NCBI RefSeq assembly: GCF_050304635.1
Contig: NZ_JBNLDX010000012.1
DNA from: Haliangium sp.
Lineage (GTDB): Bacteria > Myxococcota_A > Polyangia > Haliangiales > Haliangiaceae
Direction: 5' to 3' (one strand)
Length of the DNA: 64,000 bases
In this document: positions 3,969 through 5,051 of the stretch, piece by piece
How positions within the stretch are numbered: the stretch's first letter is position 1
How the letters are laid out: each line of letters starts with the position of its first letter
Position numbers and translations under genes: made by a program
The notes under the pieces: model-generated
Database searches by the model: none
The model's input: the letters and a program-made list of their open reading frames with translations, nothing else
What the model was told of the DNA's origin: nothing

Positions 3969-5051
3969 CTACTTGAACCAGCGCCGGGGATCCACCAGCG
4001 GCTCGGCCGGGCCGGGGCCGAAATCGAGCGAGTCGATTTGCAGGAGCTCCTCTTCGATCATGAGCTCGATGAGGGCGGCCCGCTCGGAGCGCTCGCCGCG
4101 CAGCTCGTCGCGCACCACCTCGACCAGCCCGCCGATGGCGAAGGCGTTGATGGGCCGGCCGAGCTCGAACAGCACGTCGGTGAGGGCGCGGCCAAAGGCC
4201 CGGGCCTGCTGGAAGCGCTCCTGGGGCTCCCGGGCCAGGGCCCGGTACAGCACCTCTTCGAGCGCGCGCGGGATGTCGGCGTTGACCTCGCTGGGGCGCG
4301 GGATCTCGGCCGCACGCGCGAGCTGGATGGCCTCGATGTCGGTCTTGCCCTCGAACAGGCGGGTGCCGGTCAGCATCTCGTACAGCACGATGCCGGCCGC
4401 GTACACGTCCGAGCGGGCGTCGCCGCCCATGCCGTAGGCGGCCTCGGGCGACAGGTAGCCGAACTTACCCCGCACGATGTCGGGGTCGGTGCGCTCCACG
4501 TGCACGGCGGCCTCGGACAGCCCGAAGTCCACCAGCTTGACCTCTCCGTTCACCGACAACAGCACGTTGGCCGGGTTGACGTCGTGGTGCACGACGTTGA
4601 GCGGGGTGCCGTCGCGGTCGATGAGGTGGTGGGCGTAGTCGAGGCCGCGGCAGATCTCGATGGCCAGGAACACGCTCATCTCGACCGGGAGCAGGGTTTG
4701 GCGCTCGGCCTGACGCTTGAGCATCTCCTTGAGGTTGATGCCGTTGACGTACTCCATGACGATGAAGTAGGCGTCGCCGGCCCGGCCCACGTCGAAGACG
4801 TGCACGATGTTGGCATGATTGAGCAGCAATCCGAGCCGGGCCTCGTCGAGGAACATGCGCAGGAAGCGCTCGTTGCCGGCCAGGCGAGGCAGGACGCGCT
4901 TGAGCGCGACCCGCTTGTTGTACCCGGGCTGGCACCGCATCTCGGCGAGGTAGACCTCCGCCATCCCGCCCTCTCCAATTCGCCGGAGCACCTGGTATTT
5001 CTGCTGGGGCTCCGTCAAGGTAGGCGTCCTCAGGGCCGCTATTGTGTCCAA
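3969..5051 (-). CDS. Ser/Thr protein kinase, atypical catalytic loop (HHDVNPAN)
   Basis: 360 aa. Gly-rich loop GEGGMAEV, VALK beta-3 lysine, catalytic loop HHDVNPANVLL, DFG present, activation segment GKFGYLSPE. Paralogous to the kinase at 38038..40080. Confidence 0.85.
   Translation of the reverse strand: MDTIAALRTPTLTEPQQKYQVLRRIGEGGMAEVYLAEMRCQPGYNKRVALKRVLPRLAGNERFLRMFLDEARLGLLLNHANIVHVFDVGRAGDAYFIVMEYVNGINLKEMLKRQAERQTLLPVEMSVFLAIEICRGLDYAHHLIDRDGTPLNVVHHDVNPANVLLSVNGEVKLVDFGLSEAAVHVERTDPDIVRGKFGYLSPEAAYGMGGDARSDVYAAGIVLYEMLTGTRLFEGKTDIEAIQLARAAEIPRPSEVNADIPRALEEVLYRALAREPQERFQQARAFGRALTDVLFELGRPINAFAIGGLVEVVRDELRGERSERAALIELMIEEELLQIDSLDFGPGPAEPLVDPRRWFK

Follow-up and report, generated by a model that had tools for sequence, protein, structure and literature searches.

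A myxobacterial family of PknB-like kinases in which the catalytic-loop lysine may have been relocated to the P+1 loop

In the protein kinase PKA, the hydroxyl of Thr201 in the P+1 loop hydrogen-bonds both Lys168 of the catalytic loop and the catalytic Asp166. Lys168 helps to hold the gamma-phosphate of adenosine triphosphate (ATP) for transfer, and there are precedents for moving this basic residue: in tyrosine kinases its place is taken by an Arg at the second residue downstream, in JAK JH2 domains by a Lys at that same point, and in ROP5B an Arg from the Gly-rich loop seems to serve instead (PMC4718504). The same concept is found in the WNK kinases, in which an active-site Lys is supplied from a neighbouring element and the enzyme is active (PMC12599244). 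Here we analyze two kinase genes, kinase A (3969..5051, minus strand) and kinase B (38038..40080, plus strand), in a 64,000-nucleotide stretch of DNA from Haliangium sp. (contig NZ_JBNLDX010000012.1 of assembly GCF_050304635.1; hereafter the window), which has a guanine-plus-cytosine (GC) content of ~70%. In both proteins the catalytic-loop Lys is replaced by a small residue, and a Lys stands at the position of PKA Thr201. Comparison with several hundred kinase domains suggests that these two changes mark a large family and that the lysine may have been relocated rather than lost.

In sequence and in fold, the best matches are the PknB-like kinases (such as Mycobacterium tuberculosis PknB and Staphylococcus aureus Stk1), with 30–33% identity and a template modelling score (TM-score) of 0.8–0.89 relative to the target. 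Kinases A and B share with them the G-loop, VAxK, the alpha-C Glu, HxD, the catalytic-loop Asn, DFG, SPE, the conserved Asp and Arg landmarks, and an activation-loop Thr at the position of PknB Thr171. In contrast to the PknB-like kinases, the proteins described here have Ser, Asn or Ala for the catalytic-loop Lys, Lys for the P+1 Thr within a [KR]-G-K-F sequence, an 8-residue insert before HRD, and a family-specific helical C-terminal extension. A recent kinase atlas (O'Boyle et al., bioRxiv 10.1101/2025.01.12.632604) describes a Myxococcota-specific family, Myxo2, whose members carry either a transmembrane region at the C terminus or a carboxypeptidase-regulatory-like domain; it is placed among the 35 canonical families and not with the pseudokinase families. 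Restriction to Myxococcota, the C-terminal transmembrane helix of kinase B, and the PEGA or CarboxypepD_reg domains of relatives all resemble this family. The clade analyzed here is thus probably Myxo2, as matched to the atlas description of its distribution and architectures. The main text of the atlas makes no mention of the catalytic-loop Lys or of a P+1 Lys in Myxo2.

Motifs were placed by HMMER alignment to solved PknB-like kinases and by a MAFFT alignment with PknB and PKA. Kinase A has 360 residues from a TTG start (340 residues from Met21 in the NCBI form) and matches the Pfam Pkinase model (PF00069) with 133.8 bits (E 9e-39; cut-off 31.7). The protein is soluble, without a transmembrane segment, and its kinase domain is followed by a two-helix C-terminal extension. 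The catalytic loop reads HHDVNPAN (4566..4589, minus strand; residues 155–162), and the alignments to PknB and PKA place Asn159 (codon AAC, 4575..4577) at the position of PKA Lys168. Because His156 replaces the Arg of HRD, kinase A is a non-RD kinase. In the P+1 loop, GKFGYLSPE (4443..4469, minus strand; residues 195–203), Lys196 (4464..4466) occupies the position of the threonine of the G-T motif, equivalent to PKA Thr201, and is at least 90% conserved. The PknB/PKA alignment also delineates the family-specific 8-residue insert, IDRDGTPL (4599..4622, minus strand), between helix alpha-E and the catalytic loop. The ATP-binding Lys51 of the beta-3 motif VALK (4899..4910, minus strand) and the metal-binding Asp175 of the DFG motif (4521..4529, minus strand) are both present. 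An AlphaFold2 model of kinase A, with a mean predicted local distance difference test score (pLDDT) of 87.2 and a predicted template modelling score (pTM) of 0.85, has a bilobal, PknB-like kinase fold. Its top Foldseek matches are PknB structures (E ~4e-21), and the best solved matches, from M. tuberculosis PknB, are 30–33% identical.

Translated from the ATG at 38038, kinase B has 681 residues; with the in-frame GTG at 38008 as start it would have 690. It matches the same Pfam model with 124.1 bits (E 9e-36; cut-off 31.7). A long linker of low complexity connects the N-terminal kinase domain to a single transmembrane helix, beyond which lies a short tail; the predicted helix, VWAVVLFVVLLAGIIAAGVLL (39835..39897, plus strand), was read directly from the translation. 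In the catalytic loop, HRDVAPSN (38455..38478, plus strand), Ala (codon GCG) occupies the position of PKA Lys168, and the P+1 loop, GKFAYISPE (38569..38595, plus strand), carries Lys at the Thr201 position. The insert before HRD is GPDGQPLR, and the P+1 region contains VRGKF, as it does in kinase A. Among the best 120 homologues of kinase B, 83 have HRDVSPSN, with GKFAYISPE, and only 3 have HRDVAPSN. Since HRDVSPSN predominates so strongly, the Ala of kinase B is a derived variant of the family Ser.

The two proteins are paralogs (43% identity over 287 residues, E 4e-73), as the original prediction from the DNA sequence had proposed, and its two further observations, loss of the catalytic-loop Lys in both (Asn in kinase A, Ala in kinase B, by the PknB/PKA alignment) and a common GKF(G/A)Y(L/I)SPE segment, are borne out. 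They are old members of the family and not recent duplicates; each has orthologues of its own, 83–88% identical for kinase A and 81% for kinase B. An NCBI protein from Haliangium sp. matches kinase A at 100% identity, and the counterpart in Haliangium ochraceum DSM 14365 matches it at 83%. Both proteins retain the G-loop, the beta-3 Lys, the alpha-C Glu, the catalytic Asp, the Asn, the DFG Asp, the APE Glu, and residues equivalent to Asp220 and Arg280, and on every feature tested they belong to the Hanks-type kinase superfamily. They depart from the Ser/Thr-type signature (HRDxKxxN with a G-T/S P+1 loop) at both of its positions, and they carry neither the tyrosine-kinase catalytic loop (Arg at +2, as in HRDLAARN, or at the Lys position, as in HRDLRAAN) nor the tyrosine-kinase P+1 loop (P-x-x-W-x-A-P-E). 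Nor do they fall within the standard definition of a pseudokinase, which requires the loss of at least one of three residues, namely the beta-3 Lys, HRD Asp and DFG Asp (PMC12599244; also the atlas preprint, bioRxiv 10.1101/2025.01.12.632604).

Tyrosine kinases (HRDLAARN, HRDLRAAN) and JAK JH2 also lack the Ser/Thr-type Lys, the Ala of HRDLAARN being the same residue as in kinase B, and a basic residue elsewhere takes over the gamma-phosphate contact (PMC4718504). Their replacement, however, lies two residues downstream, where kinases A and B have Ala and Ser, and the P+1 loop of A and B is of the Ser/Thr type. In WNK kinases it is the beta-3 Lys that moved, to strand beta-2, whereas here the beta-3 Lys is in place and the catalytic-loop Lys has apparently moved. 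The bacterial pseudokinase families ActPs1-3, GLW, CP1, DYD and DLHK are likewise Hanks-type proteins with non-canonical active-site motifs, but in those families the beta-3 Lys is missing, in many cases along with the HRD Asp and DFG Asp; kinases A and B keep all three. No other Lys or Arg is found within the catalytic loop of either protein. A compensating lysine one residue away, which the original prediction had considered, is therefore absent there and throughout the loop, although the Lys at the P+1-loop position arguably answers to it.

Kinases A and B belong to a very large PknB-like (Hanks-type) family that extends across Myxococcota, and the suggestion that they form a distinct subfamily held up in that both lie inside one large signature-bearing clade. 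Its marks are that the catalytic-loop Lys position is non-basic, that the P+1 position is occupied by Lys or Arg, and that the proteins have the 8-residue insert before HRD and a [KR]-G-K-F sequence in place of the [MLI]-G-T-P of canonical kinases; kinases A and B have all of these marks. The family consensus around the insert is AHxxxDxxGxPLxxVHRD. A scan of one genome per species returned at least 600 matches. Among the matches listed, all are from Myxococcota or Bradymonadales save a few metagenome-assembled genomes with uninformative or doubtful labels; those with informative labels come from Polyangia (Sorangium, Byssovorax, Labilithrix, Nannocystaceae, Kofleriaceae), Bradymonadales and Myxococcia (Myxococcus, Archangium, Anaeromyxobacteraceae). 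A Myxococcus member of 931 residues, for example, has PEGA domains and a transmembrane segment in addition to HRDVSPQN and GKFGYMSPE. Of the 120 closest homologues of kinase A, all 119 that could be scored pair Ser or Asn on the catalytic loop with Lys on the P+1 loop (65 Ser/Lys, 54 Asn/Lys). The group nearest to kinase A consists of short soluble proteins (median 348 residues) in which H[HN]D[VI]N is conserved and which, like kinase A, lack the HRD Arg.

In 405 domains of the swapped type, diverged to ~35% identity, the beta-3 Lys is retained in 97.8%, the alpha-C Glu in 98.0%, the HRD Asp in 98.0%, the catalytic-loop Asn in 98.8% and the DFG Asp in 99.0%, and these five residues are invariant in a 63-sequence family alignment, as are the other kinase landmarks (G-loop, APE Glu, Asp220 and Arg280). 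The activation-loop Thr/Ser at the PknB Thr171 position is kept in 97% of the family. The P+1 position is Lys in 94.3% and Arg in 5.7%, and is thus 100% basic. The catalytic-loop position, by comparison, is Ser in 76%, Asn in 15%, Thr in 5% and Ala in 2%, with some Cys, and never returns to Lys or Arg; the ancestral residue at this position appears to have been Ser. As regards overall architecture, many relatives have two to six kinase domains per chain, often ending in PEGA domains, and tandem kinases that pair both active-site types occur. In relatives with two scorable domains, the order is swapped-canonical in 29, swapped-swapped in 18 and canonical-swapped in 9.

The relation between the two positions was examined in 582 kinase domains, drawn from 507 database proteins, the kinases of the window and two reference kinases; where a protein has kinases in tandem its second domain was also counted, and 120 canonical kinases from Myxococcota are part of the set. 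P+1 Lys or Arg is present in 386 of the 402 domains that lack the catalytic-loop Lys (having Ser, Asn, Thr, Ala or Cys instead). Among the 181 domains with the catalytic-loop Lys, the P+1 residue is Thr in 145, Gly in 20, Ser in 10, Ala in 3 and another residue in 3, and a basic residue was scored in a single case, which is a false APE match. The two peculiarities described in the original prediction, loss of the Lys and the GK motif, therefore go together. Fisher's exact test gives p = 2e-130 for the association, a value that overstates the evidence because the tree, built by neighbour joining, has in essence a single deep division, with 386 domains on the swapped side and 175 on the canonical side. 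The exceptions in the tree are deep branches at a distance of ~1.0 from both clades, and their placement is unreliable. These sequences support one ancient event and cannot show more. A stronger argument than the p-value is what followed the split: the P+1 position stayed basic throughout while the catalytic-loop position drifted among small residues, which is the pattern expected if the function had moved. In three family relatives, HRDLSPRN is combined with GT(Y/P)R(Y/F), so that neither the catalytic-loop Lys nor the P+1 Lys is present and an Arg stands at +2. This +2 Arg may be an alternative compensation, as in the HRDLAARN of tyrosine kinases.

The most likely reading, which we hold with moderate confidence, is that the catalytic-loop Lys has been relocated to the P+1 loop across the family. 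Kinases A and B would then probably be functional enzymes whose active site has been rearranged, and not dead kinases. In the proposed arrangement, the basic side chain of PKA Lys168 would have moved, leaving behind a small residue that was Ser ancestrally and is Asn in kinase A and Ala in kinase B. The P+1 Lys (Lys196 in kinase A) would reach the same pocket and supply positive charge in place of the missing Lys. The partners would in effect be swapped, with a small polar residue on the catalytic loop and a Lys on the P+1 loop. Mutual exclusivity of the two lysines would follow, because both together would compete for one pocket. Enzymes of this family would bind ATP and transfer phosphate normally. 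More speculatively, a catalytic residue that rides on the mobile activation segment might make catalysis dependent on the conformation of that segment. The motifs, membership in the family, retention of the remaining catalytic residues and the nearly perfect exclusion of one lysine position by the other are direct observations; from these we infer contact between the two positions, a catalytic role of the P+1 Lys and activity of the proteins. Literature searches on the motifs returned irrelevant matches only and no description of a P+1-loop version of lysine relocation.

Several points weigh against relocation. Confidence in the kinase A model is only moderate in this part of the activation segment, with a mean pLDDT of 52 for residues 181–190 and 72 for residues 191–200. 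Covariation amounts to essentially one deep split and not to many independent events, and two unrelated clade markers could have been fixed together. Two positions upstream of the P+1 Lys, the family has another basic residue of its own ([KR]-G-K; basic in 90%); it is an alternative candidate for the relocated charge, or a sign of a change in substrate binding. Kinase A also lacks the HRD Arg, and kinase B lacks even the hydroxyl of a Ser. Foldseek and literature searches found neither a solved structure of a family member nor a published activity assay. Fixation of unrelated clade markers on one ancient branch, with no functional coupling, would account for the single split of 386 swapped and 175 canonical domains with its deep, unreliably placed exceptions. 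We nonetheless regard it as very improbable. After the split the P+1 position remained basic in 100% of domains, whereas at the catalytic-loop position Ser, Asn, Thr, Ala and Cys replaced one another and neither Lys nor Arg came back. In addition, the two positions are hydrogen-bonded in canonical kinases, and the few relatives without the P+1 Lys often carry the +2 Arg.

The original prediction suggested low-activity kinases or pseudokinase regulators, because loss of the Lys usually cripples phosphotransfer; such proteins would act as scaffolds or allosteric regulators. All three residues that define a pseudokinase by their loss (PMC12599244) are present in kinases A and B. Each of them is retained in ~98–99% of 405 divergent family domains, and so are the Asn, the alpha-C Glu and the activation-loop Thr; without catalysis, such retention would be difficult to account for. 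Pseudokinase families let these residues decay. The always basic P+1 position is a plausible replacement for the missing Lys. It is true that the catalytic-loop Lys helps to position the gamma-phosphate (PMC4718504), that kinase A lacks the HRD Arg too, that a true pseudokinase encoded at 15214..20487 attests to such proteins in this genome, and that the family has yielded no published activity data in our searches; on balance, the pseudokinase reading of kinases A and B is unlikely and lacks support. Slightly less improbable, if still doubtful, is that the kinases are active without an equivalent of Lys168, and that substrate specificity is determined by the P+1 Lys together with the basic residue upstream of it and the Phe one position downstream. 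Acidic or phospho-primed substrates could be favoured, or the acceptor could be shifted to Tyr or to dual specificity. Lys168 and Thr201 are positions that differ between Ser/Thr and Tyr kinases, so that acceptor specificity cannot be assumed; and because the whole P+1 loop is remodelled, with three adjacent family-specific changes in a substrate-binding element ([KR]-G-K-F against [MLI]-G-T-P), a role in specificity has to be taken seriously, whether as a rival explanation or as a further function. PKA Thr201 contacts the P-2 arginine of the substrate (PMC8970585), the Pfam Tyr/Ser-Thr kinase model scores almost equally with the Pkinase model, and MasK, a Hanks-type kinase of Myxococcus xanthus, is reported to be a tyrosine kinase (PMC3546991 and PMC2877116, both citing Thomasson et al. 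2002). An mglA neighbour, sought as a way to ask whether MasK belongs to this family, was present in none of the loci examined. Yet the loop keeps the Ser/Thr form G-x-x-x-Y-x-S-P-E and not the Tyr form P-x-x-W-x-A-P-E, there is no +2 Arg, and a shared pocket directly predicts strict exclusivity with the catalytic-loop Lys, whereas a specificity role does not demand it. Relocation of the Lys and a change of specificity are compatible and not mutually exclusive.

A different situation is seen in a third kinase of the window (28347..32510, plus strand), in which a kinase domain is followed by AAA_16 and TPR domains. Its HRDLSPQN motif, which the original prediction had listed beside those of kinases A and B, lies at 28866..28889. 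The protein is not a member of their subfamily: it keeps the G-T of the P+1 loop (GTPAYMSPE, 29034..29060) and falls in the canonical clade, with nearest relatives that are 45–55% identical. All of the nearest 120 homologues have Lys at the catalytic-loop position except one with Arg. Two substitutions separate the Ser codon (TCG) from AAG, and there is no P+1 Lys. The gene is fast-evolving, and the substitution is a private, uncompensated Lys-to-Ser loss within the canonical clade. Because the Ser is private to this protein and no P+1 Lys accompanies it, low activity would fit the third kinase better than kinases A or B, and if catalysis is impaired in any of the three, this protein is the stronger candidate.

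In the window, a six-frame profile search identified six Hanks-type kinase-domain genes, at 3969, 15214, 23545, 28347, 37981 and 53837. With all search filters off, this six-frame search yielded no seventh kinase-domain gene in the window, so the earlier count of seven is reduced to six. The gene at 53837..57991 (plus strand) encodes a canonical kinase with HRDFKPEN, whose domain is split by an acidic low-complexity insert (~80 residues by alignment) between DFG and APE, within the activation segment. Many TPR_12/TPR_10 repeats come after the domain. This split domain may have been counted twice. The 1757-residue kinase-like protein encoded at 15214..20487 (plus strand) has an N-terminal domain with VILQ for VAIK, HRS for HRD and GFG for DFG. 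Gln replaces the beta-3 Lys and Asp the catalytic-loop Asn, so that every key catalytic residue is gone, and the domain is fused to AAA_16, TPR, GAF and histidine-kinase ATPase (HATPase_c) domains. It fits the description of the bacterial pseudokinase families, which kinases A and B do not, and as judged from its motifs it is a true pseudokinase joined to a two-component output. NCBIfam gave generic kinase matches only, all below their cut-offs, and Rfam gave no match in the window.

The gene neighbourhood offers no clue to the function of kinase A. In the window, its neighbours are tsaE (5044..5736, plus strand), which is divergently transcribed from it in a head-to-head arrangement, and a gene for an M1 peptidase. 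Orthologues of kinase A in two other contigs have unrelated neighbours. A functional tie between kinase A and tsaE was accordingly dropped, and their adjacency is treated as coincidental because it is not conserved in those contigs.

Other features of the window are recorded here for completeness. SusC-like/SusD gene pairs are typical of Bacteroidota, and one is found at 5982..10301 (plus strand), where the gene for a SusC-like TonB-dependent receptor (CarboxypepD_reg and Plug domains) stands immediately before one for a SusD/RagB-family protein, here in a myxobacterium. The gene at 40865..42271 (minus strand) encodes a protein in which LNS2 (lipin/Ned1/Smp2) and PITM1-3 domains occur; these are known mainly from eukaryotic lipid-handling proteins. 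Eukaryote-like or secreted-looking proteins also flank the kinases, namely an RCC1-repeat protein with a CBM96 carbohydrate-binding module (25158..28067, minus strand) and a protein with PI-PLC-like and ricin-B lectin domains (32576..34636, minus strand). Toward the end of the window, GC content falls from ~0.70 to 0.575 (62001..64000), and this segment may be acquired DNA. It contains an open reading frame (62504..63898, plus strand) that by eye has the look of an HD-domain (dGTPase/SAMHD1-like) protein. The last ~70 residues of the protein encoded at 59357..61462 (...GLAGQQLAGALSKNLSPLAILGGESVAEVAARLLDRLPLG...DQGESA) recur nearly unchanged in an open reading frame ~850 bases downstream. The duplicated 3' gene end (~61250..61460 and ~62100..62310) may be an insertion scar.

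The analysis separates two changes that look alike in a motif scan, a compensated change that runs through a whole family (kinases A and B) and a private, uncompensated loss (the 28347 kinase). If the Lys does act from the P+1 loop, the family would represent a third natural route to a basic residue at the gamma-phosphate, beside the Arg or Lys at +2 and the Gly-loop Arg proposed for ROP5B. Beyond this, we put forward more tentatively that it could embody an undescribed Hanks-type layout, in which a transition-state Lys comes from the P+1 loop and chemistry is gated by the conformation of the activation segment. Such a layout would be a bacterial counterpart of WNK in thousands of myxobacterial kinases, possibly with an altered preference for the phospho-acceptor or for substrate charge. 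The family also offers a clean system for double-mutant swap experiments on the rearrangement of kinase active sites. Myxobacteria have some of the largest bacterial kinomes, and scans for HRDxKxxN would flag a large share of these kinases as suspect. If the P+1 Lys has taken over, the members of this family would be catalytically active, and a pseudokinase annotation would be wrong for them.

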